From the NCBI GenBank assembly GCA_964507075.1, contig CAZDOL010000002.1:47465-72224 (forward strand): DNA of 24,760 nt, read 5' to 3'. This stretch comes from an uncultured Gammaproteobacteria bacterium (GTDB lineage: Bacteria > Patescibacteriota > Patescibacteriia > UBA2591 > UBA6264). Position numbers and translations under genes: made by a program. Positions 4,554 to 24,760 of this stretch are shown one piece after another (position 1 is the first letter of the stretch; each line of letters opens with the position of its first letter). The notes below the pieces were generated by a model that made no database searches, had not been told where the DNA came from, and saw nothing but the letters and a program-made list of their open reading frames with translations.

Positions 4554-5294
4554 TCAAAGAAGACGATATTTTAATCTAATTATTTCTTTTAGATACCCTA
4601 ATGCTGTTTTAATAATCTTAACTTTTGTTTTTCTTTCATTTTTATCTTCCCAATTAATTGGTATTTCTTTAATTTTGAGATTATGATGTCGAGCCAATAC
4701 TAAGAGTTCAGTGTCAAAGAAAAAACCATTGTTTTCAATTTTTGGGATAATTTTTTGAACAGCTGATTTGGAAAGCGCTTTAAATCCGCAATGGGTATCA
4801 GTTAATTTAATGTTAAAAAATATTTTAAGAATAAAATTATAGAATATAGAATACACAGAGCGCATTAGAGATCGTTTGCAGTGGCTTTGTTTCTGATATC
4901 GCGAGCCAATAGTTAAATCATATTTTTCTTTAATTATCCCTTTAATTAAGGGAAGTGTAAATTTTAGTTCAGTAGCCAAATCAGCATCCATAAAAATATT
5001 AACATCAACTAAATAATCCAGCCATGCTTTTTTAATAGCCAACCCCTTTTTATCAGGTTGTGATAAATGGAAGTATTCTAAATTAGAATATTTTTGTTTT
5101 TTTTGTTGGATTATTTTTATGGTTTTATCTGTTGAGCCGTTGTCAGCCACGATTATTTTCCATTTATATTCTTGAAGATTATTTTTACAAAAAATAAAAA
5201 GCTGATTAATTTTTTGCTCAATAATTTTTTCTTCATTATATGTTGGGATAACCACCAAAACGCTTTTCTTTTTTAGATTATGTTTAGTCTCCAT
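4554..5294 (-). CDS. Family-2 glycosyltransferase (polyprenol-phosphate sugar synthase / Dpm1-like)
   Basis: VVIPTYNEE...ADNGSTDKT...MDADLAT (DxD) plus a C-terminal amphipathic tail. This is a typical GT2 GT-A fold signature. Confidence 0.8.
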   Translation of the reverse strand: METKHNLKKKSVLVVIPTYNEEKIIEQKINQLFIFCKNNLQEYKWKIIVADNGSTDKTIKIIQQKKQKYSNLEYFHLSQPDKKGLAIKKAWLDYLVDVNIFMDADLATELKFTLPLIKGIIKEKYDLTIGSRYQKQSHCKRSLMRSVYSIFYNFILKIFFNIKLTDTHCGFKALSKSAVQKIIPKIENNGFFFDTELLVLARHHNLKIKEIPINWEDKNERKTKVKIIKTALGYLKEIIRLKYRLL

Positions 5295-5301
5295 ATTGTT
5301 T

Positions 5302-7044
5302 TTATTTTAACAACTTCTTAATGATTTTTATATTTTCTTCTGACACAGAACCAATAGTTTGTCCATTTTTTTCTTCAGGGTCTTTTTCTAAATCATAAAG
5401 GGTAATTTCTTTTTCTTTCGCGTTATATTGATATTTTAAATTATCTTTAACAAAATTCAAGGGGCATTTATAGTCAGAGGGTTGGATTAAAGGGATAAGT
5501 TTATTATTAAGTATTTCTTTGCCCTGAAGCTCGGGCCAGAAGGATTGGCTAAATTTGTTTTCAGAATAATCAATTTGGAAGAAATCCAAAAATGTTGGCA
5601 AAATATCTAAATGACTATAAACACCGTTTATTTTTATGTTTTTATATTTTTCTTCATCACCTATAACCAAAACCAGAGAAGTAATAAAATTTTCTTCAAA
5701 AGCCATTCTTTGGTTGAAAGTATTGTTTTGATGAAACTCAGCTGGCCAACCATGGTCTCCCAAAATAAGCAAAGTATAATTTTTTTCAGGAAAAAGTTTG
5801 TTAATATTTTCCCAAGCAACAGTCAAATATTTATCCTGCAGAAAAGTGGTATTTTGTAATTTTTCACGATGATTTTTAGGATTTTTATAAGGAACTAGAT
5901 TTTCTAATCCTAAAGGAGTGTGAAAGGGCCAATGATTGGTTGGACCCACTTCTATATATAAAAAATTACGTTTTTCTTTGTTTTTTTCAATATAATTAAA
6001 AACTTTTTCATAAAAAATGTCTTCCCTAAATCCCCAGAGATATTGAGGGTCATCTTTAGACATAATATCATCAGCGTGTATTTCGTCAAAGCGTAAATTC
6101 TTCATAAATTCTTTTGTTCGGGCAAAACTTAAATCATAACTTTTGAGAAAAAATGTTTTGTATCCTAAATTTTTCATTATTTCAGGCCAACAAATAATTT
6201 TTTTATCAAAATTACTAGAAACAAGTGTTAATTTAAAAGAACCAGGAAAAGAGCATAGTAAATTTTCTTGGCCTAATATAGTTTCAATACTATTGCTATA
6301 AAATTTAGGAAAAAGAATACCATTTTTGGCTATTTCTAAAAAATTTGGCGTAATTTTTTCACTGACCAAAAAACCATTCAAACTTTCTATTTGAAGAATG
6401 ATGATATTGTCTAAGTATGGAGGGATGTTATTTTGATTAATTTTTTGAACTTGAGAGATTATATTCTCTTTATTTTTTTCAGATTTTTTAATCAATTCTA
6501 AATATATATCTTGATAATATTCTATTATCTCATCTTTGTGGAGTAAAGTTTTGCCGAAAGAGAATAGTTCGTTGTTTGCGGAAGGAAAAATAAAAAATTG
6601 AACCAAGATTGCAATTAATAAAATTAGATAAATAATTTTATTTTTAATTTTTAATTTTATTTTTTGAATTAGCAAACAATTCAAGAGAGCTGCAAAAAAC
6701 AAGATTATCAAGGGGCAGATTAAACTTAAAATGATGTTATGGTTAGAGCCCTGAATAAGGCGTTTAATAAAGTAAATGTTAGGACTATTTTGAAATAAAA
6801 GAAAATAAACAACAAGAGATAAGTATAGTAAATAAACAATTGTGGACAAGAGAACTCCAGCTATTCTTGAAATTTTAGAAAAGAAATATGACAAAAGAAC
6901 AAGGAAAGTTATAGCCTGGAACCATTTATATAACCCTAAAAAGGCATTACATTTCCAGGAAGATGCCATAATAATCAACAGATTCGTTAGGGTAAAGACA
7001 AATATCAAGAAAATGCTGTATATTAATCCTCTTTTAATTGTCAT
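5302..7044 (-). CDS. Membrane-anchored sulfatase/alkaline-phosphatase-superfamily transferase (LtaS / phosphoglycerol-transferase-like)
   Basis: About five N-terminal TM helices, then an extracytoplasmic domain with ILQIESLNGF, NSIET, and GDHGWP. The start ATG overlaps the upstream gene's stop as ATGA at 7041-7044. Confidence 0.65.
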   Translation of the reverse strand: MTIKRGLIYSIFLIFVFTLTNLLIIMASSWKCNAFLGLYKWFQAITFLVLLSYFFSKISRIAGVLLSTIVYLLYLSLVVYFLLFQNSPNIYFIKRLIQGSNHNIILSLICPLIILFFAALLNCLLIQKIKLKIKNKIIYLILLIAILVQFFIFPSANNELFSFGKTLLHKDEIIEYYQDIYLELIKKSEKNKENIISQVQKINQNNIPPYLDNIIILQIESLNGFLVSEKITPNFLEIAKNGILFPKFYSNSIETILGQENLLCSFPGSFKLTLVSSNFDKKIICWPEIMKNLGYKTFFLKSYDLSFARTKEFMKNLRFDEIHADDIMSKDDPQYLWGFREDIFYEKVFNYIEKNKEKRNFLYIEVGPTNHWPFHTPLGLENLVPYKNPKNHREKLQNTTFLQDKYLTVAWENINKLFPEKNYTLLILGDHGWPAEFHQNNTFNQRMAFEENFITSLVLVIGDEEKYKNIKINGVYSHLDILPTFLDFFQIDYSENKFSQSFWPELQGKEILNNKLIPLIQPSDYKCPLNFVKDNLKYQYNAKEKEITLYDLEKDPEEKNGQTIGSVSEENIKIIKKLLK

Positions 7045-8699
7045 TTGTTTTTGGGCAAATTATTTCTGTAGATAATCGCTTGTTCGTCTTCATAAACTTT
7101 TTCTAAATTTGTTGATTTTTTTAGTAGTTTTGCGAATTTTTCATCGTTTTTTGATTTTGACGCAATAATATATGAAGCTTTGAATTTTTCTTTGATAATT
7201 TTTGCTGTTTGCTCGGGATCAACATTACCTGTAAATAAATCATCCCAATCATTGTAAAGTTTTTTGTCATATTCATACATAAATGTTTGGTCTAAACCAT
7301 TGACGTAATAATGGCTGTCATCAAAATAGAGTAATTCCGGGAATATATCCCAATTGCTATGAAATATTATCTCTTGAGAAGGAACACTATTTCTAATCCA
7401 TTGTGTTGCCCCCTGAAGGTAGTTGACTGGGCGAGAGCTATTTTGATAGGATTGCTTTAATCCATAAACTCCATGAATTAAATAGAAAATTAAGAAAAAA
7501 GCGCAAGCAGAGCTTAATATGATTGTTGTAATAAAATAAAAAGTATTTTCAGTTGAAGAAAATAAACGTTTAATTTGTTTTCGAACATTGTCCCAGTTTA
7601 TACTTTTTATAATCTGAGTGAAAATTAAAGCATTAAAGATTATGATTATTGGTGCTAAATACTCAATAATTCGACGCGCTTTCAGGGTATACGCTAGAAA
7701 GAATATAGACAGAAGAGCAAAAAACCATTGTTTAGTTTTTTGTTTCTTGATGAAAGAAATAAACCAAGCGATTGATATTATATATGGTATTAAAAGGGGC
7801 AAAGTATCTAATAAGAAATTGGGCATTTCTGAAGGATACCACTCTGCTCCTACTCCAATTAAATTTTGATAGTTCAAAACAGCTATCTTAACAGTTTGAA
7901 ACCAATAAAAAGGAAATGTTTTGGGAAAGTAAGGATTGATAATAAGTCCGATGAGTAACCCCGAAAAACAATATAAAAGTAGTTTTACGTTTGAACGATT
8001 AAAAAAAGATTTAAAAAATAAGGCAAATTTTATTGATTGTTTTTTGATTAGTTTTTCTATGGCATACGAAAAACAGTAGATAAGCGCGCAAACAAACATT
8101 AATGGCCAGCCACCATAAGTCCAAACATAAAAGACAGAGATTAAAAAAATACCTAAATATTTTTTGCGTACAATATAATAGAGTCCTAAAATTAGGATAA
8201 CCAGAGAAAGAGCAGGGCTTCTGCTTAAAGAAAGTCGAAATAAAAAATTTGTTATCAAAAAACTGCTTAATATCCATAGCAAAGGTAGCTTAACTTTTAA
8301 TTTGCGCAAAAACCAATAAATTGCAAGAATAGCCAAAGCCGCAAAAAAAGCGCTAGCTAATTTTACTTTTAACAATGGGTCTATTTGGGTTGATAAAATA
8401 TCAAAATTTTTAGGCGTTGGAATGCTTAAAAACGGAAGAAGTAAAAGATGATATCCAAAATGATGGTCAACAAATAGATTTTTATAAGTAGTAAATTGAG
8501 TCCATGGGAAATCTTTAACAATATTTCCCTCTTTCACAAGTAATGCCATTTTCGTGTGGTAAAAGCCGTCTGGACACAACAATGTTGGGGGGGCTAAAAC
8601 ATAAAGAAAAATAATAAAAGCAACGGCAAATACTATTAAATAAATTAACCATTGCCTTTTGTATATAAGTTTATAAATTTTTAATATAATATCAATCAT
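7041..8699 (-). CDS. Polytopic membrane protein, putative GT-C-fold glycosyltransferase (ArnT/PMT/STT3-like)
   Basis: More than ten predicted TM helices, a first loop containing PDGFYHTKMA, and a soluble C-terminal domain. The ORF track starts at a TTG (8723) lying inside an octamer repeat. The first ATG is at 8699 (MIDIILKIY...), and I prefer that start. Confidence 0.5.
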   Translation of the reverse strand: MIDIILKIYKLIYKRQWLIYLIVFAVAFIIFLYVLAPPTLLCPDGFYHTKMALLVKEGNIVKDFPWTQFTTYKNLFVDHHFGYHLLLLPFLSIPTPKNFDILSTQIDPLLKVKLASAFFAALAILAIYWFLRKLKVKLPLLWILSSFLITNFLFRLSLSRSPALSLVILILGLYYIVRKKYLGIFLISVFYVWTYGGWPLMFVCALIYCFSYAIEKLIKKQSIKFALFFKSFFNRSNVKLLLYCFSGLLIGLIINPYFPKTFPFYWFQTVKIAVLNYQNLIGVGAEWYPSEMPNFLLDTLPLLIPYIISIAWFISFIKKQKTKQWFFALLSIFFLAYTLKARRIIEYLAPIIIIFNALIFTQIIKSINWDNVRKQIKRLFSSTENTFYFITTIILSSACAFFLIFYLIHGVYGLKQSYQNSSRPVNYLQGATQWIRNSVPSQEIIFHSNWDIFPELLYFDDSHYYVNGLDQTFMYEYDKKLYNDWDDLFTGNVDPEQTAKIIKEKFKASYIIASKSKNDEKFAKLLKKSTNLEKVYEDEQAIIYRNNLPKNK

Positions 8700-8711
8700 T
8701 TTTAAAAAATC

Positions 8712-8743
8712 CCAATTACCCAAGTACCCGATTACCCAACTCC
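8712..8743. repeat. Tandem octamers CCAATTAC CCAAGTAC CCGATTAC CCAACTCC
   Basis: The 8-bp period was read directly from the sequence. The array sits in the divergent intergenic region between the GT-C-like gene and yebC. Confidence 0.85.
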
Positions 8744-9628: not shown

Positions 9629-10114
9629 ATGATTATTTTAGGCATTGATCCTGGTTATGCAATTACTGGTTATGCGGTTATTAAGGTTGATTTGAAGACA
9701 AAAATAATAACTTTAGTTGATTATGGATGTATATTCTCTTCTCCTAAGGATATTTTTTCCAAACGATTATTAATTGTTTTTAATGGAATTAAAGAGGTAA
9801 TAAGGAAGTATAAACCAGATAAGATAGCCATAGAACACATTTATTTTGCCAAGAATGCCAAAACAGCTATTAAAGTTAGTGAAGCTAGGGGCGTTATTAC
9901 GTTAGCAGCTGCTATCGAAAAGATTGATATATTTGGCTTTACTCCTTTACAGGTTAAACAAGCTTTGACTGGTTATGGGAGAGCTACCAAGGGTCAAATT
10001 CAGCAAATGGTAAAAAACATTTTGAAATTAAAAGATATTCCTCGTCCTGATGATGCTGCTGATGCTTTAGCTATTGCGCTCACCTGTGCACAGACAAATC
10101 AGGTGCTTAGGTAA
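9629..10114 (+). CDS. ruvC: Crossover junction endodeoxyribonuclease RuvC
   Basis: IILGIDPGYAITGYAVI, IEHIYF, and the GYGRATKGQIQQMV...DDAADALAIAL catalytic acidic motifs. Also classic yebC-ruvC synteny. Confidence 0.92.
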   Translation: MIILGIDPGYAITGYAVIKVDLKTKIITLVDYGCIFSSPKDIFSKRLLIVFNGIKEVIRKYKPDKIAIEHIYFAKNAKTAIKVSEARGVITLAAAIEKIDIFGFTPLQVKQALTGYGRATKGQIQQMVKNILKLKDIPRPDDAADALAIALTCAQTNQVLR

Positions 10115-10125
10115 TCGTCAGGTAG

Positions 10126-10159
10126 AAAAAAAATACACTGGTCTGACCAGTGTTTTTTT
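10126..10159. terminator. Bidirectional intrinsic terminator between ruvC and the convergent hydrolase gene
   Basis: A8 run, then stem ACACTGG (10135-10141) / CCAGTGT (10147-10153) with loop TCTGA, then a T6 run. Confidence 0.65.
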
Positions 10160-10172
10160 AATTATTAAAATC

Positions 10173-10203
10173 CCGATTACCCAATCTCTAATTACCCAAG
10201 CAT
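10173..10203. repeat. Octamer-family repeats CCGATTAC CCAATCTC TAATTAC CCAAGCAT
   Basis: Shares CCGATTACCCAA with 8728-8739. It abuts the stop codon of the minus-strand gene at 10203. Confidence 0.75.
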
Positions 10204-11432
10204 TAGCGTTTGGGATATATATATCCTACGATTTGCCATCCGCCTTGAGAAGTATTTTGCCAGGCGGTTGTCCTTCTTAATTTTCGGGTTACTGGTTTTT
10301 GGGTCCAACTTGGATTTGATGGACCATTCATTTCCGAGAAATAAACATAATTATCGTCAAATTTTTCTATATAAGCAACATGTCCATACCAATTATTGCA
10401 TCTCAAAACTACTATTGACCCCTCATCTCCTTTATTTAGAGTGAGACCCGTTTTAAATCCATCGTTTCTAGCGTTTTGTAGCCATGTTCTGGCATTTCCC
10501 CAATTACTTGGTCCTACACATTGACCTAATTCAGTTGCCCACTTATAGGCCACCCAATCAGTGCATTGACCTGGGTTCGTGTAGTAGCGTTTACATGATA
10601 CACAACAACGTTTATATCTCCAGTCTGTATAACTGCAATTACTTTTTTCCGTGGGAATAAAGGAAGAAATAGAGGAAGTTTTTGCTATGATTGGTTTTGG
10701 CACAGGAAGCGGTGAGCCATCAGGGATAATTAAAATTTCCCCTACTTGAAGATTGTCTGGGTTAATGAGATTGTTGAATGCAATTATTTCTCCAGTATCT
10801 ATTTTGTATTTTTCGGCAATCTGAGAAAGTTTTTCGTTTTTCTTTATTTTATGCAAAATTCCATCTACTGGCAGAATTGTTAACTCGTCTCCTGGCTGAA
10901 TATTGGCGCGCCAATAAGTTAAATCATTTGCCCAGAGTACCGTCCAAACACTTAAACCAAATTTTTCAGCAATATCCCAAGGATTGTCATTGGGTTCAAC
11001 CACATAAGTTTCGATTTCTGTCCTAGTGGGTATAATATTTGGACTAATTTCACTATTGACAGCAACAAGAGCAGTATTATTTAAAGTGAGAGCTAATTCT
11101 GGAGAGGGATATTCTTCTCTTAAGAGAGTAGCAATCTGGAAATCATAATTTTCCTTTTCAATTTTCGGGTTTTGCGCGGAGGAAATTCTATCTAAATGAA
11201 TATCTTTGCTGGTACTTTCGGAAAGAATAACGTTACTGCTTTGATTTATTATCTGTGCATAAGAAAAAAATATAAAAAATAAAACAGCCAGAATAACAGG
11301 CAGTTGTTTTTTGGGCTGTAAGTTTTTATAAATTCTAGACAAAAGGTGTCCAAAATAGATGGCACGAAGTATGCCTCTTTTTAAAGCCTTAATACTATAT
11401 CTGACAATTTGTCTTAATAGTTTATCTTGCAT
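10203..11432 (-). CDS. Membrane-anchored peptidoglycan hydrolase: 2x LysM plus a C-terminal CHAP domain
   Basis: TM anchor LPVILAVLFFIFFSYAQII. LysM repeats YVVEPNDNPWDIAEKFGLSV...L.PGDEL and HKIKKNEKLSQIAEKYKID...LQVGEILIIP. CHAP motifs QCTDWVAYKW and YGHVAYIE. The track start at 11438 is TTG, and the first ATG is 11432. Confidence 0.8.
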   Translation of the reverse strand: MQDKLLRQIVRYSIKALKRGILRAIYFGHLLSRIYKNLQPKKQLPVILAVLFFIFFSYAQIINQSSNVILSESTSKDIHLDRISSAQNPKIEKENYDFQIATLLREEYPSPELALTLNNTALVAVNSEISPNIIPTRTEIETYVVEPNDNPWDIAEKFGLSVWTVLWANDLTYWRANIQPGDELTILPVDGILHKIKKNEKLSQIAEKYKIDTGEIIAFNNLINPDNLQVGEILIIPDGSPLPVPKPIIAKTSSISSFIPTEKSNCSYTDWRYKRCCVSCKRYYTNPGQCTDWVAYKWATELGQCVGPSNWGNARTWLQNARNDGFKTGLTLNKGDEGSIVVLRCNNWYGHVAYIEKFDDNYVYFSEMNGPSNPSWTQKPVTRKLRRTTAWQNTSQGGWQIVGYIYPKR

Positions 11433-14943: not shown

Positions 14944-15639
14944 ATGAGAAATAAATCTAAAGTTTTTCAAATATTTTGCCTTTCAGTATTGGGGTTATTT
15001 GTTTTAGCCTTAGGTTTTTTTCAGATCAGGGGAGCGATTTATGGTCCATTTAAAGGTTTTAGAAAATCTAATACAGAGAAAGAATCAGCACTAACACAAG
15101 AAGAGATTTTATTTATTTTATCAGAGCAAGCCAAACAAGAAGACACAGATAAGGACGGCCTTTCTGATTATGACGAAGCTTATGTTTATAAAACATCTCC
15201 ATATATCCAAGATTCAGATAGCGACGCCTTTTCTGACCAAGAAGAAATAGAAGCGGGAAGTGATCCTTTGAATTCTAATTCAACGCCTTATCATCAGGCA
15301 GAGGATAATGAAGACAATCAATTAATAGATAAATCTTGGCCCGAGCCCCTTGAGGATGAACAATTTTCTTCAGAAGATATTAGGGATTTTTTAATTCATG
15401 CAGGAATAGACAAAGAAATTGTGGACAATATTGATGACAATGATTTAAAAAAGTTATATAATGAAACTAAAGAAGAAACAGGTATTGACCCGCAGGATTT
15501 AGGATTGTCATCTTCTCCTGAGGTTGATATTCTTTTATTAAGGCAAGCTCTAATAGATGAGGGGGTTGATGCTTTAATATTGGGAGAAATAGATGACGAG
15601 ACGTTAAAAGCAATGTTTTTGGAAAATTTAGGAAATTAA
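14944..15639 (+). CDS. N-terminally anchored, highly acidic protein with thrombospondin-type-3-like Ca-binding repeats and a duplicated C-terminal helical motif
   Basis: TM segment VFQIFCLSVLGLFVLALGFFQI. DTDKDGLSDYDE and DSDSDAFSDQEE match the DxDxDGxxDxxE pattern. Internal duplication: IRDFLIHAGIDKEIVDNIDDNDLKKLY / LRQALIDEGVDALILGEIDDETLKAMF. Confidence 0.6.
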   Translation: MRNKSKVFQIFCLSVLGLFVLALGFFQIRGAIYGPFKGFRKSNTEKESALTQEEILFILSEQAKQEDTDKDGLSDYDEAYVYKTSPYIQDSDSDAFSDQEEIEAGSDPLNSNSTPYHQAEDNEDNQLIDKSWPEPLEDEQFSSEDIRDFLIHAGIDKEIVDNIDDNDLKKLYNETKEETGIDPQDLGLSSSPEVDILLLRQALIDEGVDALILGEIDDETLKAMFLENLGN

Positions 15640-15662: not shown

Positions 15663-18600
15663 ATGAGATTTGGGAAATCAGGTAATATTTTTATCAAAGG
15701 AGCGATTTTATTAACAATGTTTATGTTAGTAATTTCCTCTTTTTTATTTTTACCACAAAAAACTCAAGCTCAATTTATTGTTGCTGATCCCATCAAGGGT
15801 GTTTGGGATGCGATGAAATGGGCATGGGATAAGGGTGGTGCAGTTGCTTATCGAAATGCTTTAAATTTCTTTTTACAACAAGCCGCCAAACAATCAGGTG
15901 AATGGTTGGCTACTGGAGATGCAGGCAAGAAACCAGCATTTTTAACTGATCCTGATTTTTTTAGTAAAGCAGGTGATCAAATGTTGGGAGAGTTTGTTGA
16001 TTCTGTGGCAGATAATTTTTTAGGACAAAGTCTTTGTGACACTTTAGATCCCACTGTTAAATTTAACATATTGGCTAATTTAGACCCAGATTATCAAAAA
16101 ATGAAATGGGCAGAAGAACCAAAATGTTCTTTCAGTCAAATTAAAAAGAATCTTGAAGAAGCAGACTGGGAAAATATGTTTGAGTTTTCTAGTGAGGTAA
16201 AAGAGGGGAAAGTTGCTAAGCAAAAATCAACTATTAGCTCTCTTATTCAAGGTGATTCAATCCTAACAGAAGAGAGGAAGTATACATTGGACGGCAAACT
16301 AGATATTTGTCCTGGGAGCGGTCTTGACATCTTACAATGTCCTGCTGGAGCTGTTAATTGGGCGTTAGGAAACGTTTTTTATTTTTATCAGGAAGACTAT
16401 CAAGGAGTTGGGTCATATTTGCATGAATATACTAATGAGTTTGAGGATATTTTAGAGGGACTGAAAAAAGATGCTCCAACCCTTGGACTTGTTCGTGAAT
16501 CAGGTGAATCTGAAGATGAGAAAGATGCTGAGGCTGTGGCGATAATGAAAGGAGAGGCCTCGGCAAGGCTCCAGGCATTAGAAAAACAATTAGATCCAGA
16601 AACAGGCGCAGAAATTTGGATTCCGGGAGAGGGTGAAGATATATTTAAATTAGCAAGTTTAAATAAGTGGGCCCCAGAATGTTTAGCAAAGGATAACAAG
16701 GTTTTATTAGATGACCCGCAATGTCGTGGTTTATGTGATGTGAAAATTTGGCTTCGCAATGATTCTAATTCTGTAAAGAAATGTACTAGCGCATTAGGTA
16801 AACCAACTGGAAGTGTGTGTACATCAAATTCTGACTGTGAATCAGGCAGTACTTGCGAAGAATGGTATGGAATGTGTCAAGGGGGAAGTCATAATGGAGA
16901 GTGGTGTAAGAATACTTCTCAGTGTTTATTGCCATTACCAGGCGTTTGTGTAGATGCTGGACCGATTTGTTATAATCGCATTAAGAGAGTGAATAAATAT
17001 ACCAAACAATTAATAGAGTGGGCCACTACCCTACAGGACATGATAACTCAAGTTCAAAATAACTGGGAAGCACAGAAAGGTATACCTGATTTAGATCCTT
17101 TGGAAGACGCACAGAATATGTTTAATCCAGAGAGTAGCGCCATTGGTATACAAATGAGCTTAGAGAGTAAATTATTTGAAAAACAAGCAGCTGCTATTGA
17201 AAAAAGTAAAATTTTTAGGAGTATTCAGGGTTCAATGAACGCAGTAACTTCAAAAGTTTCAGGCATTATTAAACTACCATCTACTTTTGTGAGTGAAAAA
17301 GCGCGGGAATCTGTAAAATCTGGGAGCGCTGGACCTTTAACTACCACAGGCGTGGCTTTAGCTGATGCTATTGGAGTTTTTGCCAACACTTTTATATCTC
17401 AGTATATGAAGATTCTTTTCACCAAAGGACTCAATCCAGGGGCAGATAGCAGCAGGGTCAATGTTCCTGATGATCCCGAGGATCCGCCAGATCCGGACAC
17501 AACTTCTATTTTAAGCGAAATAAAAGTAATCCCTATTAATCAAGCCAGTAATGAAATGAGTATTTATGATGAATTTGCAGTTTGTCCTACTGGTACCGAC
17601 CAAAAATATACTTCTCAATTTAATTGTTTATTAGATAATAAATTAGCTCGAGCTGTAGAAGAAAGAATGACCATTCAAGAAGCTATAGAGAATAGTCTTC
17701 TTAATCCTGAAGAACGTTTGGGTATAGCTGGTGATATGCGTAGTTTATTATCAAAGAGTCATATTCAAAAACTACGACTAATTGGTATTCTGCCCTTGGG
17801 CATGCAAATCGCCAGCAAAATAGTTATGGAAGGGCAATATACTAACGGAATGACTTTGGCTGAGGTGGTAGACGGATTTGATCAAAGGGGCGCAAATGGT
17901 ATTTGTGGTGATCTTGACTCAGGAGAAAGTGAATTTTGTAATCTGGTAGACCCTGATTGGGTTTTGAAAGCCCCCAGTTATTTATGTGAAATAACTGGTT
18001 ATTCAGCGATTCCCCTAAGAGATAGTTCTTTTCGCCAAGAATCCTGTTTAGATTTAAAAACATGTATTAACGAAACTGATGGCAATCAGTGTGATACATG
18101 GTCTTATTGCACCCGCGCAAAGAATGTTTGGCGTTTTGGTGGAGATGAATGTGATGCTCAGTATAATACTTGTGCTTCTTATGCCCAAAAAGATAGTGGA
18201 GAAATTTTCTCTTATCTTTCTAATACTTTAGATTTTAATAATTGTAGCGCCAGTAATGTTGGTTGCAAATGGTATTGTTCAAAATGGGACCAAATATATT
18301 CGGGCATAGGTGGTAATTGGCCTTGTTCGTCTCCTGGTTGGCGCAAATATACTTGTTATCTCGGAGGCTTGTGTGATGACCCTTCTTGTCTTTGCGCTTG
18401 CGACGGCGATAATGGTTGTCCTGATGGATTAGGGAGTTGTGATGTTGTAGAAGGAGGAATGTCTTGTTCCTTGGATAGTCCCGAATTAAGGAATGTAGCC
18501 TTTTTTAGTAATCATATTGGGGGATGCAAAGAAGTTGACGAGGGTTGTTCTAAATATATTAGAATTAAACCAGGAACAGGAGTTAATTTTTTGCCTAATG

Positions 18601-21600
18601 GAAGTTTTGAGTTGCCTTCTCAAGATGACGGCACTCCTTTTGGTTGGTATGTTAATAATTCAGCGATTATTCAACAAATTGCGCTTTCCTCGGGTGCGCA
18701 ACATAGCAGTAATGTGGTACAGATTCAGACCGGTAATTGCGAATTAAGTCAGACGGTTCATAATGTCCCTTTACAAGGAGATTTTACTTTCTCGGGATAT
18801 TATAAGAAAAATAGCATTTTATCTGGTAATTATAATTTAAAATTACAAATTTGTTATGACGATAATTGCGATGATTTGGACGAGATTGAGAAAATTATTG
18901 AGCTTGATAATAATAATTGGAAACCTGTTTCTGTGTCCTTATCTTCTAATATAGAGAAATCTATTGATCATGTTAAGATTTTCGCTTTTAATTCTTCTGA
19001 TTTTAGTGGTGATATTTATATTGACGCATTACAACTTAGAAACGAAAGTGGGAATTCGGTTTATAGAGAATATGGCTCTAATGGGATTACTTATTTTAAA
19101 AGTGCTCCCGGACAGATGAATTGTTATGATGGAGATGAGAGTAATAATAATACTGATTGTGATAATTTTATTCAAAAATGTGATTCACAAAATGTTGGTT
19201 GCGAATCTTATATTTCTATGAATGATAATATGTCAGATATTCCAGCCATAGTTGATAATTTAGATTTATGTCTTTCAGGTTGTGTTGGCTATGAAACTTT
19301 TGAAGAAATTCCGACCAATTTTGTTAGTAGTAATCGTTGGGTAGATTTAATTCCTCAAACAGCAAAAAAATGTTCTGCTCCAGGTTGTGAGGAATTTACG
19401 AATTTAGATGCCTTGTCTCAAGGAGGTGAAGCGAGAGAATACTATACTTATCTCCGCCAATGCGTTAAGACTAATGCTCAAGGATTGGCAATCGTGGATT
19501 CTCTGGGAAACGAAATTTCGCCAGCCACTGCCGATACTTGCCGATATTATTATACTTGGGTTGGAGAAGAAACAAACGGATATCAATTAAAGAAATATTA
19601 TTTAGAAGCTAATCTATCTTTAGGGGGGCCAGTTCAAGTTAGCGCAACCCCGAATTCTGATTGGGGTGATTGCGAAAACGAGGATGACGCAGACGAAAAT
19701 CCTCATTGCAGGCAATTTTACGACGCTATGGGCAATATTTATTATCGTCTTTATAAAAATACTGTTACTTGCTCGCAAGACTGTAGTCCTTATCGTAGAG
19801 AAGTGGACAACACAACTCATATGGCTATAAAAACAGAAGGAGAAATTTGCGGGTTCCAAGACGTTGGTTGCAGGGAGTATAAAGGGTCTGCTTATGGAAA
19901 TATGAAAAATTTATTCTTGGACAGATTCCTCTCCAGCACTGATCCATGGGAAAATGTTGAAATCAGCGGCGAATCAATCAATCACTTGGGCCAATCTATA
20001 AAAGCCGACAATAATTTGGCTCAAAGACCAGTAGATGATTTCATTAGTTCTAGGGGAAAGGTTTATTCTCTTTCATTGTGGGTTAAAGGAAGTGGTAATT
20101 ATATTGCATCTTTCGGCAATGATTTATATTTTATTAACGAAGGTTCTCATGATGTTTCAGTTGTTTCTAATGATTGGCAAGAGATAAGATTTGGTTCTGT
20201 TTATTTTAACAGAGAGCCAGAAAACGATGAAAAATTAATCATCCAAGGACCGAATCAATTTTATTTAGATAATATTACCCTTAATGAGGTTCAGGATAAT
20301 ATTTATTTAACTCAAAATTCTTGGAATACACCGGCGGTTTGTGATATTGATTCCGAAGGAAATATATTTTCTGGTTATATGCTTGGTTGTCAAGCTTATT
20401 GGGATAGGAGCAATAACGCGCATTATCTTAAATCATTTAGCCGTCTTTGCCCCACAAAAGCAGTTGGGTGCGAAGCTATAATTGACACAAAAAATTCAAT
20501 GTCTGCTTTTAGCGAAGAATTTAATGGAGGGCTTCCTCAGGGCGACGAAATTGTTATTCCCGCCGACAGCTTGATTTACAGGGTTTATGACACAGACAAG
20601 AGTTGTGCCTCTGAAAACAAAGGGTGTCAAAGATTTGGCTTACCAGAATTTGATTCTAGTCAAGAAATAATTGATTTCACAGATGTATATTTATTAAATA
20701 ATCCAGATTTATATAAACTTCAATCCATTCTATGCGACATAGAAGGAGAAGGGTGTCAAGAATATGATGGACGAGTTTATTTTAAAGAACCAGGTGACAA
20801 TATTTGTGAGTATCGTGAAAATGTTTTTATTAATGGAGAGAATAAAAATGGTTGGTTTAAAGGTGAAACTGATCAACCTTGTTATATAGAAAATGGTTTT
20901 GCCTATCAACCATATGGCACTGTTTATGGTATTCGTACTAATACAGATCTTTTATATGAGGGAATTGCTGGGGTTTGTCCTGAAAATCAGAATGGATGTA
21001 GTCGGTTTATTAATCCAACTGAACAAAATTTAGTTTTGAATAGTGGGTTTGAGTTAGATGAGAATGGAGATGATGTTCCTGATGATTGGGACCCATATGA
21101 AGATCCAGAAATATCATTTACCCTAGAAACGAATGATTGTTTGAGCGGAAATTGTTGGCGAATGAATCATATTGGCGCTGCAACTTCAGCTGGTTCGCAA
21201 TATATAGAAATACAACCAGGATATACTTATGAGCTTTCTGCATGGATGAAAGCAAGTGATACTTCTACTGGTACCAGCAGAATTTACCTTGCTTATGTTG
21301 ATGAATTTAATCCTGGGACTTGGTTAGATATTGCTCACTCTGAACAATTAGGTTCTACGGACGGAAAATGGATAAAACACACTGTTACATTAAAAGCTCC
21401 ATATAATGCCATGTACGCTAGAATTTTAGCTCCTTATGTTGACGGTTTCATGGATGTGAGGATAGATAATGTTTCCTTAATAGAACAATTTTCTCCGCAA
21501 GGCAGTTATTATTATTTAAACAATGAAAATATAGATAAGACTTCTTGTAATGCAATGGCAGGTTTAAAAGAAGGTTGTATCTTATTTAATGATACTTCAA

Positions 21601-24065
21601 TTTCAGGAAATTTATTTTATGATTCAACCTCTACTTATGTTTTAAGTCAATCTCAGGGTGATATTTCAGTTCCAGCGTCCAGTGTTAGTTTAAATTCTGG
21701 GGGCGAAGGAGACAGTAATGTAGTTCTTAAAGTGAGGCGAGATAGAACTTGTGGTGAATGGTTGCAATGTTCGGGTTATCGTTCGGTCTGGGATAGTTCT
21801 ATTGATGAATATCGTTCGGTCTGTGATTCTTGGGTGCGTTGCGATCAGTTGGTTGGCTCTGGCAAACAAGCTCAATGCGGACATGTTGTTTATGATCCCA
21901 ACCCTAATCCTTTAACAGAACGAGAATATAAAAACAGAAATGTTTCTTGGTCAGGTATGGACTATTTGGGTTATTCTATACCAGATATGTATCCCATAGA
22001 AAGATTGTTCCCGAGCGAAGATACGCAAAATTCAGGATTATATACCTTAACTTATTTTGAAGATATAGATGATGATGGCATAGAAGACAATATAGGAGTG
22101 GATGGACTTGGCTTAAACATTGAGAAAACCACGCGTATTTACCCAGAAAAGAATTCTCCTTTCATGGCCAGTGCTAGTTCCTATTATAACAAGGTTAATT
22201 TATGTGATAGTGGAACAGGTGATTATCCTTATGATAATATTGATATTGACGGTAATATTGTCTCTCTCTATCCTGATTGTCAGGGTTCTTATCAGAAGGT
22301 TGAATATGGTGATCAATATAGTGGACTAACTAAATATTATAATTTTGATACAGGGGGCGTTAATTTAAGGAAAGCTTGTAAATATAGTGGGAAAAATTGT
22401 GAAAATGGTTTTCCTGACTGTGAAGCGGGAGATGAATGTGTTAAACCAAACAAGATAACTCAAGTTATTGGTTTGAGGGGTTTTTGTTTAGAGCCAGATG
22501 AGTCAAGGCCTGAAGATGCTAATACTTGTATTACTTGGTGGCCAGGGGCCAGCGCTGGCGATGTAGATGTTTATAATTTACATTATTCAGCAGGATATGT
22601 GGCGACTGGTAGCAGGAAATGGTATTGTTTAAATCAAGAGGACTATGTTTTTTCGGATGTTTGCACAGAAGATGGTGATCCGGGATGTAAATATCATTGT
22701 TGGGAGCACGACAGTTGTTCTTCTATTAAGATTTATGACGTAAATGATGATGGTCGCTTGATTCATAAAGATGAGATAGATTATGTCCAAACAGAATTAG
22801 GGGCTTCTGACGGGACAAGTTGTTCAATGGATCATATAATATATCTTAGAGAGGATCATGTTGGAAATTATGAAGAGGGAAATTGGTATGGTTGTACTGT
22901 GTCTGATGGTAGTTATGCTGGTAGTTGTGGTTATGATGCAGCCGCGTCTGACCCTCTCACTTGTAGATGTACCCAAAATGGTGATGGAACACAAAATGAT
23001 GGCTGCTCCTGCACAAAAATACAAGTTACTTTTGACTCCAATGGTTTTTTAGAAAAAGTAAAGCTAAGAGCGCATGGGAACAGTGCTGCCAATGATCGAC
23101 AATCATGGGATGGTGATTTGGAGGTTCATCTTAAGAGTGGCTGTCAATTCCTTGTTAATGCGATCCCAAGTGACAATTTTGGATTATCCATTACTTATAC
23201 TGATCGCTTTTGGGAATTCAGTGATTATTATTCTATAATAGATCCACCAAATACGCCTGGGACTGGCGGCCAAGATTGTACTCCTTATGGGGTGGCCAAT
23301 ACTTCAGACGCAACTAGATTGACCATAACAGGAGGTTTGGGAGAGGATAATTGTGATGGGGGCACAGAAGATGGAGGTAAAGCTAATATTGTCTATAATT
23401 TAAATGGCTTACAACAACTGTTTGTCAAGGTTGATGAAACACAAGAATTTGACGAAAATGCAATGAGCTATGGTTCAGTAATTGCTGGCAATTGGGCTCC
23501 CTGGAATATAACAGAGATTGCAGCAAGTTCGGCAGATGCGCCAACGATAACTTCTATTAATGGAGTTGAAAACGCTATTAGTATTGGGGAAGAGGATTTT
23601 GGAGTAGGTCCAGAAACATCTCCTTATGTTGCAAATCTTAAATTTTATGCTTCAGCAGATACAAATCATATGCCTATTAGGGAGATTAGCATTGATTGGA
23701 ATAATGATACGCCAATTAATTTTTATAATGTAATTAGCAAAAATCATCGTCCAGAATGTGATGGTACAGAATTTGGCGCAACACCTGAAGCTTGTGTAGA
23801 TAAATATTTTTCATTCAACCATACTTATACTTGCGAAGGAGAAGGAAGTGATGGATGGAATGCACATGGATGTGTTAATATGTGTTGTTTTAAACCTAAA
23901 GCTTATATCAAAGATAATTGGGGCTGGTGTGCTGGTAATCCAGGGGTATATGCTGGATGGGATTCTGACAACAATGCATATAATTGTAAAGATTGGGCTG
24001 ACATACCCGTAAGCGAAGCAGGAATTCCTTATAATGGAGTAATTAAAGTAAACACAAATAACTAG
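15663..24065 (+). CDS. Giant (2800 aa) secreted or N-terminally anchored Cys-rich surface protein with three jelly-roll/CBM-like modules and a PKD-like C-terminal region
   Basis: An uninterrupted 8.4-kb ORF beginning 23 nt after the previous gene. Signal peptide ...FLFLPQKTQAQF. About 112 Cys by hand count, nearly all after aa ~120. Recurrent C-x(4-7)-G-C-x-x-[YF] motif. N(F/L)(L/V)xNG(S/G)FE-type modules at ~18585-19050 and ~21027-21488, plus a related one at ~19908-20295. No LPXTG or C-terminal anchor. Confidence 0.85.
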   Translation: MRFGKSGNIFIKGAILLTMFMLVISSFLFLPQKTQAQFIVADPIKGVWDAMKWAWDKGGAVAYRNALNFFLQQAAKQSGEWLATGDAGKKPAFLTDPDFFSKAGDQMLGEFVDSVADNFLGQSLCDTLDPTVKFNILANLDPDYQKMKWAEEPKCSFSQIKKNLEEADWENMFEFSSEVKEGKVAKQKSTISSLIQGDSILTEERKYTLDGKLDICPGSGLDILQCPAGAVNWALGNVFYFYQEDYQGVGSYLHEYTNEFEDILEGLKKDAPTLGLVRESGESEDEKDAEAVAIMKGEASARLQALEKQLDPETGAEIWIPGEGEDIFKLASLNKWAPECLAKDNKVLLDDPQCRGLCDVKIWLRNDSNSVKKCTSALGKPTGSVCTSNSDCESGSTCEEWYGMCQGGSHNGEWCKNTSQCLLPLPGVCVDAGPICYNRIKRVNKYTKQLIEWATTLQDMITQVQNNWEAQKGIPDLDPLEDAQNMFNPESSAIGIQMSLESKLFEKQAAAIEKSKIFRSIQGSMNAVTSKVSGIIKLPSTFVSEKARESVKSGSAGPLTTTGVALADAIGVFANTFISQYMKILFTKGLNPGADSSRVNVPDDPEDPPDPDTTSILSEIKVIPINQASNEMSIYDEFAVCPTGTDQKYTSQFNCLLDNKLARAVEERMTIQEAIENSLLNPEERLGIAGDMRSLLSKSHIQKLRLIGILPLGMQIASKIVMEGQYTNGMTLAEVVDGFDQRGANGICGDLDSGESEFCNLVDPDWVLKAPSYLCEITGYSAIPLRDSSFRQESCLDLKTCINETDGNQCDTWSYCTRAKNVWRFGGDECDAQYNTCASYAQKDSGEIFSYLSNTLDFNNCSASNVGCKWYCSKWDQIYSGIGGNWPCSSPGWRKYTCYLGGLCDDPSCLCACDGDNGCPDGLGSCDVVEGGMSCSLDSPELRNVAFFSNHIGGCKEVDEGCSKYIRIKPGTGVNFLPNGSFELPSQDDGTPFGWYVNNSAIIQQIALSSGAQHSSNVVQIQTGNCELSQTVHNVPLQGDFTFSGYYKKNSILSGNYNLKLQICYDDNCDDLDEIEKIIELDNNNWKPVSVSLSSNIEKSIDHVKIFAFNSSDFSGDIYIDALQLRNESGNSVYREYGSNGITYFKSAPGQMNCYDGDESNNNTDCDNFIQKCDSQNVGCESYISMNDNMSDIPAIVDNLDLCLSGCVGYETFEEIPTNFVSSNRWVDLIPQTAKKCSAPGCEEFTNLDALSQGGEAREYYTYLRQCVKTNAQGLAIVDSLGNEISPATADTCRYYYTWVGEETNGYQLKKYYLEANLSLGGPVQVSATPNSDWGDCENEDDADENPHCRQFYDAMGNIYYRLYKNTVTCSQDCSPYRREVDNTTHMAIKTEGEICGFQDVGCREYKGSAYGNMKNLFLDRFLSSTDPWENVEISGESINHLGQSIKADNNLAQRPVDDFISSRGKVYSLSLWVKGSGNYIASFGNDLYFINEGSHDVSVVSNDWQEIRFGSVYFNREPENDEKLIIQGPNQFYLDNITLNEVQDNIYLTQNSWNTPAVCDIDSEGNIFSGYMLGCQAYWDRSNNAHYLKSFSRLCPTKAVGCEAIIDTKNSMSAFSEEFNGGLPQGDEIVIPADSLIYRVYDTDKSCASENKGCQRFGLPEFDSSQEIIDFTDVYLLNNPDLYKLQSILCDIEGEGCQEYDGRVYFKEPGDNICEYRENVFINGENKNGWFKGETDQPCYIENGFAYQPYGTVYGIRTNTDLLYEGIAGVCPENQNGCSRFINPTEQNLVLNSGFELDENGDDVPDDWDPYEDPEISFTLETNDCLSGNCWRMNHIGAATSAGSQYIEIQPGYTYELSAWMKASDTSTGTSRIYLAYVDEFNPGTWLDIAHSEQLGSTDGKWIKHTVTLKAPYNAMYARILAPYVDGFMDVRIDNVSLIEQFSPQGSYYYLNNENIDKTSCNAMAGLKEGCILFNDTSISGNLFYDSTSTYVLSQSQGDISVPASSVSLNSGGEGDSNVVLKVRRDRTCGEWLQCSGYRSVWDSSIDEYRSVCDSWVRCDQLVGSGKQAQCGHVVYDPNPNPLTEREYKNRNVSWSGMDYLGYSIPDMYPIERLFPSEDTQNSGLYTLTYFEDIDDDGIEDNIGVDGLGLNIEKTTRIYPEKNSPFMASASSYYNKVNLCDSGTGDYPYDNIDIDGNIVSLYPDCQGSYQKVEYGDQYSGLTKYYNFDTGGVNLRKACKYSGKNCENGFPDCEAGDECVKPNKITQVIGLRGFCLEPDESRPEDANTCITWWPGASAGDVDVYNLHYSAGYVATGSRKWYCLNQEDYVFSDVCTEDGDPGCKYHCWEHDSCSSIKIYDVNDDGRLIHKDEIDYVQTELGASDGTSCSMDHIIYLREDHVGNYEEGNWYGCTVSDGSYAGSCGYDAAASDPLTCRCTQNGDGTQNDGCSCTKIQVTFDSNGFLEKVKLRAHGNSAANDRQSWDGDLEVHLKSGCQFLVNAIPSDNFGLSITYTDRFWEFSDYYSIIDPPNTPGTGGQDCTPYGVANTSDATRLTITGGLGEDNCDGGTEDGGKANIVYNLNGLQQLFVKVDETQEFDENAMSYGSVIAGNWAPWNITEIAASSADAPTITSINGVENAISIGEEDFGVGPETSPYVANLKFYASADTNHMPIREISIDWNNDTPINFYNVISKNHRPECDGTEFGATPEACVDKYFSFNHTYTCEGEGSDGWNAHGCVNMCCFKPKAYIKDNWGWCAGNPGVYAGWDSDNNAYNCKDWADIPVSEAGIPYNGVIKVNTNN

Positions 24066-24068
24066 TTT

Positions 24069-24103
24069 GGCTCTATAGAGCCCCAAAACCAGGTCCGACC
24101 TGG
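24069..24103 (+). other. Two adjacent GC-rich hairpins just after the giant gene's stop, with no T-run
   Basis: GGCTCTATAGAGCC (24069-24082, a perfect palindrome) and CCAGGT-CCG-ACCTGG (24089-24103). Confidence 0.5.
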
Positions 24104-24132
24104 ACAAGGATAAATAGTAATTAAATATAATA

Positions 24133-24760
24133 GTGAAGGATTTATTTAAGAAAATTAAACTAAGATACCATATAAAGTTGCTACGCTCCCAAGGGCCAAG
24201 CAGGAAATTTATTTTTCTTCCTCTTTTGGTTTTGGTGTTAATAGGAGTATTTTTAATTGCTGAACCTGCTTTAGCTGACGTTGGATCTTTTGTGGCTTCT
24301 GTTTTTGGTTGGTTAATAATGCAGATAGTTAGTATTTTGGGTAAAATTTTGACTTGGATTATAGGATTATTAATAGAAATAGCGCAATATAATAGTTTTA
24401 TCACTGCTCCAGCTGTTTCTAAGGGATGGATAATTGTTAGAGACGTTTGTAATATGTTTTTTATTGCCGCTCTTTTGCTTATTGCTTTTGGTACAGTTTT
24501 AAAAATAGAAAAATATTCTTATAAAAGAACTTTGGGCGGACTTTTAGTGGCTGCAGTTTTGATTAATTTTTCTAAATTCATCTGCGGTTTTTTTATTGAT
24601 ATCGCTCAGATATTGATGCTTACTTTTGTTAATGCATTTAAAGATGCTGGATCTGGCAATTTTTTGCAAATGTTAGGCATGGATAAATGGCTTAATTTTT
24701 CTGGAGCGCAATCAGCAGCAGGTGGTAGCGCTCTTACGGGAGCTCTTTTCGCTCTAATTT
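24133..24760 (+). CDS. Partial (3'-truncated by the window) polytopic membrane protein with a signal peptide; possibly VirB6/TrbL-like
   Basis: Hand translation of the frame opening after the TAA at 24118-24120 gives the following: (GTG 24133 or TTG 24178)...RKFIFLPLLVLVLIGVFLIAEPALADVGSFVASVFGWLIMQIVSILGKILTWIIGLLIEIAQYNSFITAPAVSKGWIIVRDVCNMFFIAALLLIAFGTVLK...LLVAAVLINFSKFICGFFIDIAQILMLTF... It remains open to the window end and has several TM helices. It is absent from the ORF track, probably because no stop codon is present. The family assignment is tentative. Confidence 0.6.
   Translation, partial: MKDLFKKIKLRYHIKLLRSQGPSRKFIFLPLLVLVLIGVFLIAEPALADVGSFVASVFGWLIMQIVSILGKILTWIIGLLIEIAQYNSFITAPAVSKGWIIVRDVCNMFFIAALLLIAFGTVLKIEKYSYKRTLGGLLVAAVLINFSKFICGFFIDIAQILMLTFVNAFKDAGSGNFLQMLGMDKWLNFSGAQSAAGGSALTGALFALI

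Follow-up and report, generated by a model that had tools for sequence, protein, structure and literature searches.

The stretch of DNA considered here (the window: 24,760 nucleotides (nt) of contig CAZDOL010000002.1, assembly GCA_964507075.1, positions 47,465 to 72,224) carries a giant gene at 15663..24065 on the forward strand, which ends in a TAG stop codon (24063-24065) and encodes a 2,800-amino-acid (aa), exported, Cys-rich protein. The gene lies among genes of a type IV secretion system (T4SS), with a small partner gene directly upstream and a VirB6/TrbL-like gene directly downstream. Judging from its sequence, the giant protein (~300 kDa) is most likely a clade-specific accessory of the Parcubacteria-group T4SS, and it is expected to be strongly disulfide-bonded.

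The giant protein and its family

As the original prediction had proposed, the 8.4-kb open reading frame (ORF) is one unbroken frame of 2,800 codons that begins with a signal peptide. The sole strongly hydrophobic segment of the protein is aa 13-31 (Kyte-Doolittle 2.21), with Lys/Arg before it and T-Q-A|Q after it; the cleavage site was placed by an A-x-A-type consensus, PQKAQAQ, in the family alignment. An N-terminal hydrophobic stretch is likewise found in 131/138 full-length family members. The absence of a wall or membrane anchor, also proposed earlier, agrees with a hydropathy and motif scan of the full-length protein, which found no C-terminal hydrophobic or transmembrane segment and no LPxTG. 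Among the 138 full-length relatives, a C-terminal transmembrane-like segment is present in none and LPxTG in one. The mature protein is strongly acidic, with a net charge of about -200. Its parts are as follows.

15663..15770 (+): signal sequence, aa 1-36, with hydrophobic core aa 13-31; probable cleavage after T-Q-A36
15771..16472 (+): conserved Cys-poor N-terminal domain, aa 37-270, with a single conserved Cys pair (125/155) in the alignment
16473..16982 (+): variable region, aa 271-440, including a Cys "knot" cluster (aa 374-436) with an occupancy of 0.11 in 157 relatives
16983..17897 (+): Cys-poor region, aa 441-745, predicted helical by AlphaFold2 (AF2), mostly at low confidence (aa 656-770 alone at a predicted local distance difference test score (pLDDT) of 67-84)
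17898..18584 (+): Cys-rich core R0, aa 746-974, with hairpins Cys861/868 and Cys955/962; poorly modelled
18585..19052 (+): predicted jelly roll 1 of the carbohydrate-binding module (CBM) 4/9 type, aa 975-1130 (hhalign, AF2, Foldseek)
19053..19892 (+): Cys-rich linker R1, aa 1131-1410, with hairpins Cys1173/1180, 1203/1207, 1237/1242 and 1396/1403
19893..20297 (+): predicted CBM4/9-like jelly roll 2, aa 1411-1545 (hhalign, AF2, Foldseek)
20298..21017 (+): Cys-rich linker R2, aa 1546-1785, with hairpins Cys1596/1603, 1648/1655, 1691/1698 and 1772/1779
21018..21497 (+): CBM4/9-like jelly roll 3, aa 1786-1945, matched by Pfam CBM_4_9; the most variable module of the family
21498..22652 (+): Cys-rich region R3, aa 1946-2330, with hairpin Cys1962/1972 and conserved Cys at 2030-2072 and 2275/2289
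22653..23402 (+): insertion-rich variable region, aa 2331-2580, defined by alignment
23403..24062 (+): beta-rich C-terminal domain, aa 2581-2800, with the motif IDWGDG...HxY...DNWGWC; PKD-like at the motif level only

The giant protein belongs to a large family. When aa 620-1800 were compared exhaustively by phmmer with 1.84 billion cluster representatives, 1,325 matched at E ≤ 1e-3; at E ≤ 1e-30 the number was 1,111 clusters of 50% identity. The 150 best matches are mostly 2,000-3,900 aa long. The full size of the family was visible only by phmmer; a word-index homologue search with a 21-sequence profile returned 24 proteins. With each GTDB species represented by a single genome, homologues of the giant gene are present in no fewer than 550 species-level genomes; among the first 600 candidate stretches, 550 were confirmed. 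The homologues are collinear, with lengths of 2,539-3,700 aa in one set and a median of 2,745 aa in 65 other genomes, where they are intact. The parts of the protein follow one fixed, collinear order that more than 1,000 clusters retain over its whole length. The original prediction had pictured a disulfide-stapled stalk presenting CBMs; an exported, Cys-rich, CBM-bearing protein is what we find, but its architecture is fixed and collinear rather than that of a variable repeat stalk.

According to record titles, the carriers are members of the Patescibacteria group, including Parcubacteria and Falkow-, Komeili-, Kerfeld-, Buchanan- and Uhrbacteria. Falkowbacteria are placed in the Parcubacteria group of Patescibacteria by NCBI, and we take the named carrier lineages to fall in the GTDB class ABY1. 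Many carrier records (L010, L012-L014 and others) are titled "uncultured Gammaproteobacteria", and NCBI names one homologue (P0014) Nanoarchaeota, while its contig is apparently titled Patescibacteria elsewhere. These Gammaproteobacteria and Nanoarchaeota labels are likely taxonomic mislabels in public records. Family members are publicly annotated as "hypothetical protein" or "carbohydrate binding domain-containing protein", and no description of the family or of its T4SS linkage was found in the literature, of which the coverage searched was incomplete.

Some compositional features of the gene were also recorded. Its G+C content is 0.34-0.39, compared with 0.27-0.38 (mostly ~0.30-0.33) elsewhere in the window, which probably reflects a composition rich in Gly, Cys and Asp rather than a foreign origin. 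GC skew is positive nearly window-wide and negative at 10001-11000 only. Two antisense ORFs overlap the giant gene (16400-16759 (-), 119 aa; 23811-24404 (-), 197 aa), and these are presumably spurious because the sense frame is strongly conserved.

Cysteine-rich linkers and jelly-roll modules

The giant protein contains 112 Cys (4.0%), close to the ~110 counted originally, and all ten examples of the recurrent two-Cys motif quoted in the original prediction are present. The GCxx[YF] motif occurs in 11 copies, compared with 0.83 +/- 0.92 expected from 2,000 composition-preserving shuffles (maximum 6), and an upstream Cys stands at C-x6-C spacing in 8 of these 11 copies. Searches of Pfam, NCBIfam and PHROGs assigned the Cys motif to no named family, as had been suspected. 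In an alignment of 157 relatives of at least 2,000 aa, from which the figures on Cys conservation and covariation derive, conservation is far higher for Cys (0.61) than for any other residue type (0.39 for Trp). In their great majority, the invariant residues of the family are Cys, Gly, Trp or Tyr. All the hairpins assigned above to R0, R1, R2 and R3 (861/868, 955/962, 1173/1180, 1203/1207, 1237/1242, 1396/1403, 1596/1603, 1648/1655, 1691/1698, 1772/1779 and 1962/1972) are 97-100% conserved. They share the family consensus C-x5-G-C-x-E-[YF], and three of them stand 13 residues before the first strand of a CBM.

Cysteines that do vary among the relatives are gained and lost as reciprocal, sequence-local pairs, as had been put forward for checking. 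The phi coefficient is 0.97 for 872/888 and for 1154/1166, 1.00 for 1293/1370, 0.99 for 2181/2206 and 0.95 for 2699/2711, on a scale that shared ancestry inflates for rare Cys columns. Covarying Cys of low frequency (~0.1) were discounted because they mark the query's own clade. This paired gain and loss fits disulfide bonding. The invariant hairpins are uninformative in this respect, and their partners are not assignable by covariation, because the hairpin Cys columns never vary. As to how such bonds could be formed, candidate phyla radiation (CPR) bacteria reportedly show an enrichment of MdbA-like oxidoreductases and VKOR (bioRxiv 10.1101/335083), and a DsbA-like gene lies 5 kb upstream in one homologous locus (L008).

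Two Cys clusters singled out originally were correctly located but are only in part properties of the family. The knot-like cluster (aa 374-436) and, within the Cys-dense block at aa 746-940, the segment aa 898-935 are each occupied in <30% of relatives; both are lineage-specific inserts rather than family features. In the remainder of R0, Cys 775-868 are ~100% conserved. R1 includes a beta-rich domain (aa 1241-1396; AF2 pLDDT 60-85), and the R1 and R2 linkers are weakly homologous (hhalign 81.5%), which suggests an ancient duplication of a unit made up of Cys-rich linker and CBM.

The three jelly-roll modules expected from the original reading of the sequence were recovered, in their stated places, by several methods. 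Module 3 matches Pfam CBM_4_9 (PF02018) over aa 1789-1913 at 30.5 bits, above the gathering cut-off of 25.9, and modules 1 and 2 are homologous to module 3 with hhalign probabilities of 97% and 93%. The first-strand signature N..NG.FE is present in all three. CBM_4_9 was matched in all 15 diverse family members scanned (best E 9.8e-16), and no other Pfam domain was matched in them, whether polymer-adhesin/GbpC-like or from catalytic families; NCBIfam added none beyond CBM_4_9, and the giant protein had no match in PHROGs. A whole-family profile compared with PDB sequences matched CBM16 and the hyaluronan-binding CBM of hyaluronate lyase, all at module 3.

AF2 models of aa 441-1640 and aa 1641-2800, built from 24-sequence alignments, had a mean pLDDT of 52-53. 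About half of the modelled protein is at pLDDT <50, and no reliance can be placed on these models for the Cys-rich linkers, the N-terminal helices or aa 2040-2210. A beta jelly roll was the modelled fold of all three modules; pLDDT is 66-91 in module 3 and 50-87 in the other two. Foldseek aligned these jelly rolls with CBM16 at a target template-modelling score (TM-score) of 0.74-0.77 and with CBM22/CBM4 at 0.6-0.66, and also with CenC-like modules of phage tail fibres and tailspikes. On the strength of the models, the three modules are CBM4/9-type jelly rolls, and they are predicted to be lectin-like. Where Foldseek aligned the models as a whole (with reelin, Cry protoxins, iota/CDT toxins and phage fibres), the matches were rejected as an effect of tandem jelly rolls, with TM-scores of 0.1-0.2 and a root-mean-square deviation of ~30 Å.

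Mean column conservation is 0.16-0.38 in the CBM-like modules vs 0.48-0.49 in the Cys-rich linkers, which makes the linkers, as far as the alignment tells, the most conserved parts of the protein and the CBM-like modules the most variable. Variable CBMs joined by conserved linkers are the pattern expected of a fixed scaffold with adaptable binding sites.

The PKD-like C-terminus of the original prediction was not confirmed. The family consensus (IDWGDG ... F.HxY ... DNWGWC) does resemble the PKD signature (WDFGDG ... HxY), but six diverse C-terminal domains had no match to Pfam PKD models at E ≤ 10, and a profile of seven C-terminal sequences matched no PDB chain at E ≤ 10. The domain, with AF2 strands at pLDDT 44-87, spans at least ~170 aa with Cys-rich inserts, compared with ~85 aa for a PKD sandwich.

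Gene order around the giant gene

The features of the window that bear on the T4SS are the following.

14944..15639 (+): partner gene encoding 231 aa, 23 nt upstream of the giant gene, with an N-terminal transmembrane anchor (N-in), an acidic ectodomain and TSP3
24133..24760 (+): start (GTG) of a polytopic VirB6/TrbL-like gene, of which the first 628 nt lie within the window; 955 aa in the longer contig L001
1585-2265, 2288-2629, 3176-3565, 3616-3987 and 4024-4458 (+): five VirB2-like T4SS pilin genes (226, 113, 129, 123 and 144 aa), in the same arrangement in the syntenic locus L004
10203..11438 (-): cell-wall hydrolase with two LysM domains and a CHAP domain; candidate VirB1-like, wall-opening protein

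The ectodomain of the partner carries a bacterial TSP3 repeat of the Ca-binding type, after which two similar C-terminal segments, IDKEIVDNIDDNDLKKLY and VDALILGEIDDETLKAMF, follow. The VirB6 assignment was made through an orthologue that Pfam TrbL recognizes above its cut-off and whose identity to the local protein is 33% (E 5e-59). L001, a longer contig of the same genome, holds on one strand the 231-aa partner, the giant gene, the VirB6/TrbL-like gene, a 426-aa protein, PrgI (VirB3-like), a TraC-like gene, the VirB4 ATPase (identified as DUF87/AAA_10) and a 190-aa protein. Neither the 426-aa protein (L001 21352-22632), which has an (SP)6 linker and stands between the VirB6-like gene and PrgI, nor the 190-aa protein after VirB4 (L001 25834-26406) matched any family. 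Both are conserved in the T4SS locus, and either could be the missing VirB8-like protein or another clade-specific part.

The same gene order was found around homologues of 52%, 31% and 25% identity. In a census made by tblastn of the neighbours against 80 species-level loci, the small TSP3 partner is upstream of the giant gene in 68 of the 71 loci with enough upstream sequence, and a co-directional VirB6-like gene is downstream in 51/58. Of the 23 loci whose downstream sequence exceeds 9 kb, 10 contain VirB4. Nine of the other 13 have part of the T4SS set, with the flank ending or inserted genes intervening before VirB4, and four have no T4SS gene. Co-directional adjacency of the giant gene to VirB6, PrgI/VirB3, TraC-like/TrsD and VirB4 genes is therefore conserved.

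The gaps around the giant gene are short (23 nt upstream and 67 nt downstream), and no terminator-like hairpin was found at the junctions of the partner, giant and VirB6-like genes. The scan for promoters and terminators performed at chance level overall, and its promoter part was uninformative. The downstream spacer (24066-24132, 67 nt) contains two perfect palindromes, GGCTCTATAGAGCC (24069-24082) and CCAGGTC-C-GACCTGG (24089-24103), neither followed by a T-run; a protein might bind there, or the RNA might form a hairpin.

The LysM-CHAP hydrolase has a conserved position upstream of LeuRS, with an M23 variant in locus L007, and VirB1 homologues with CHAP or LysM domains have been described (PMC12102498). 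An 85-aa GIY-YIG nuclease ORF (2682-2939), possibly a homing-endonuclease remnant, lies between two of the pilin ORFs. Between the pilin array and YebC, 4554-8723 (-) encodes a GT2 glycosyltransferase, a sulfatase-family (LtaS-like) protein and a 560-aa membrane protein; this block looks like an inserted envelope-polymer cassette because L004 is without it.

Host contact, alternatives and comparison with known systems

The original prediction had named the giant protein a candidate adhesin or host-contact protein. This remains its most likely class, although the T4SS gene cluster around it had been missed. The reading that we consider slightly more likely than not is that the giant protein serves the Patescibacteria T4SS outside the cell, as its host-contact or adhesin component, functionally comparable to PrgB but not homologous to it. 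The protein would be exported via Sec and then oxidized outside the membrane, where short conserved loops closed by disulfides (C-x5-G-C-x-E-[YF]), together with further Cys pairs, would make the linkers rigid. The rigid linkers, in turn, would hold the three lectin-like jelly rolls of CBM4/9 type and the variable C-terminal half of the protein. Given that neither a covalent nor a membrane anchor characterizes the 138 relatives, retention at the surface would have to be non-covalent, and the conserved N-terminal part may dock on the TSP3 membrane protein and/or on the VirB6-like channel or VirB2-like pilus. Binding of host-envelope glycans by the variable CBMs and the C-terminal region might then position the T4SS at the interface between epibiont and host. 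Diversification of the CBMs and of the insertion-rich C-terminal third is as expected for parts that recognize different host envelopes.

Several points weigh against this reading. A host-contact role is deduced from sequence and synteny, and synteny by itself is no proof of shared function. Because LeuRS and KsgA are part of the conserved block too, the linkage may in part be nothing more than the gene order that streamlined genomes conserve. There is no VirB6-like gene after the giant gene in 7/58 loci, and the T4SS core of L005 lies elsewhere than the giant gene and its TSP3 partner. The structure models span aa 441-2800, while the proposed docking domain lies in aa 1-440, and with about half of the modelled protein at pLDDT <50, catalytic or pore-forming domains may have gone unrecognized. 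Finally, the Saccharibacterial T4SS is essential and is without the giant protein, so the giant protein is not a universal component.

Some of these points lend themselves to a different explanation, in which the giant protein is a general surface adhesin or envelope scaffold that is independent of the T4SS, the adjacency being inherited gene order. We regard this as possible but less likely. Housekeeping genes unrelated to secretion (LeuRS and KsgA) share the neighbourhood, the linkage is tightest to the TSP3 partner (68/71) and less tight to VirB6 (51/58), these two genes can stand apart from the T4SS core (L005), and another CPR lineage is reported to have large Cys-rich extracellular proteins unconnected with a T4SS (PMC4736985). 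Against it, the co-directional, tight spacing with T4SS genes is kept down to 25% identity with no terminator-like site between, and the window is enriched in T4SS parts (pilins, hydrolase and VirB6).

A bolder version of the host-contact reading, which we put forward only tentatively and think rather doubtful, would make the giant protein and its TSP3 partner integral extracellular subunits of the T4SS, forming a rigid, disulfide-stapled dock or conduit that leads from the VirB6/VirB4 channel and VirB2-like pilus to the host envelope. If true, it would be a class of T4SS component without counterpart in known Gram-positive or Gram-negative systems and would help to explain how the essential, relaxase-less Patescibacteria T4SS engages its host.

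It is also conceivable, but unlikely, that the protein is a secreted glycan-degrading enzyme or contact-dependent toxin, with an active domain in the unmodelled Cys-rich regions and CBMs that target the host wall. CBM4/9 modules usually accompany glycoside hydrolases. The top Foldseek matches of the aa 441-1640 model include binary-toxin translocases and Cry protoxins, and the aa 1641-2800 model matches phage tail fibres and tailspikes with CenC-like CBMs, but the toxin matches have the low TM-scores and large deviations given above, which the tandem jelly rolls explain. A preprint connects giant proteins of predatory Omnitrophota with attack on cell walls (bioRxiv 10.1101/2023.11.21.568195). 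Against this reading, no catalytic family was found in the 15 diverse members by Pfam, NCBIfam or PHROGs, and the invariant Cys, Gly, Trp and Tyr residues form no recognizable catalytic constellation.

That the protein is given off onto the host as a substrate or effector of the T4SS, instead of being retained as a part of the machine, is very improbable. Its gene does lie in a T4SS locus and the protein is without a covalent anchor, but it has a classical Sec-type signal, so that the T4SS would not be needed for it to leave the cytoplasm of a single-membrane cell, and a ~300-kDa protein with ~50 disulfides would be an implausible T4SS passenger. An assembly artefact or pseudogene, one of the conditions under which the original prediction would have fallen, can be set aside, since the same protein, 100% identical, is found on 16 contigs of independent ENA and JGI assemblies, the family comprises 1,111 clusters, and homologues are intact in 65 genomes.

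Among these explanations, then, a host-contact component of the T4SS is the one we prefer, with the caveat that the function is inferential and the carrier organisms are uncultivated. A large part of bacterial diversity belongs to the Patescibacteria, which live attached to other cells. In the sole species tested the T4SS is essential, and its function and the means of host contact are still unexplained (PMC10633639, PMC11665869, PMC12857230). The giant protein offers a concrete candidate for a host-recognition part of this T4SS, with variable, lectin-like modules whose ligands are testable. It is surprising that a conserved 2,800-aa component escaped T4SS surveys: the family, which spans over 1,100 clusters and 550 or more species genomes, heads a probable T4SS operon in a major clade of the Parcubacteria group and is annotated for one CBM only. 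Its highly conserved disulfide-rich domains and the recurrent C-x5-G-C-x-E-[YF] hairpin merit family definitions.

The Patescibacteria T4SS resembles the monoderm MPF-FATA conjugation machinery, is mostly relaxase-less and has VirB2-like pilin arrays (PMC12102498). In the Saccharibacterium Southlakia epibionticum, the T4SS cluster is essential for epibiotic growth (PMC10633639, PMC12857230, PMC11665869). The locus described here has in common with that cluster (SEML1_0006-0019) and with the 2025 phylum-wide survey VirB4, TrsD/TraC-like, PrgI/VirB3 and VirB6-like proteins, VirB2-like arrays and wall hydrolases; a nearby relaxase is likewise absent. The gene table of SEML1_0006-0019 contains no 2,800-aa protein, its largest being VirB6-like and peptidase proteins of ~1,000-1,100 aa. 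Relative to the Saccharibacterial cluster, the giant gene and its TSP3 partner are an addition in Parcubacteria-group lineages.

The phylum-wide survey stated that "no adhesins, such as the MPF-FATA PrgB, were detected" (PMC12102498). PrgB of pCF10 (MPF-FATA) is, like the giant protein, a large, Sec-exported surface protein from a Gram-positive-type T4SS locus, and it binds envelope polymers for cell-cell contact, the role proposed here for the giant protein. The two are otherwise dissimilar: the giant protein has no sequence or domain homology to PrgB, no polymer-adhesin domain and no LPxTG, and it is twice the size, with ~110 Cys and CBM4/9 jelly rolls. By its matches it belongs with CBM_4_9 and neither with the PrgB-type family nor with the PKD models. 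CagY, of the Helicobacter pylori Cag T4SS, is likewise a very large, host-exposed surface protein with regularly spaced Cys in its repeats; unlike the giant protein, it is a VirB10 homologue with helical repeats and belongs to a diderm system.

Very large, Cys-rich proteins with signal peptides and a proposed role in attachment are also found in another CPR lineage, the Peregrinibacteria, where they differ in being encoded by a 14-gene cluster, in having ~7% Cys and in showing weak similarity to Myxococcus Cys-rich repeats (PMC4736985). The giant protein is set apart from them, by description only, as the product of a single gene with 4% Cys, other motifs and a T4SS context. Its modules share the jelly-roll fold and the N..NG.FE strand with CBM4/9/16/22 (the PF02018 clan), including the modules of phage receptor-binding proteins. 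Unlike these modules elsewhere, those of the giant protein are held in what appears to be a non-enzymatic scaffold, each capped by a predicted disulfide hairpin.

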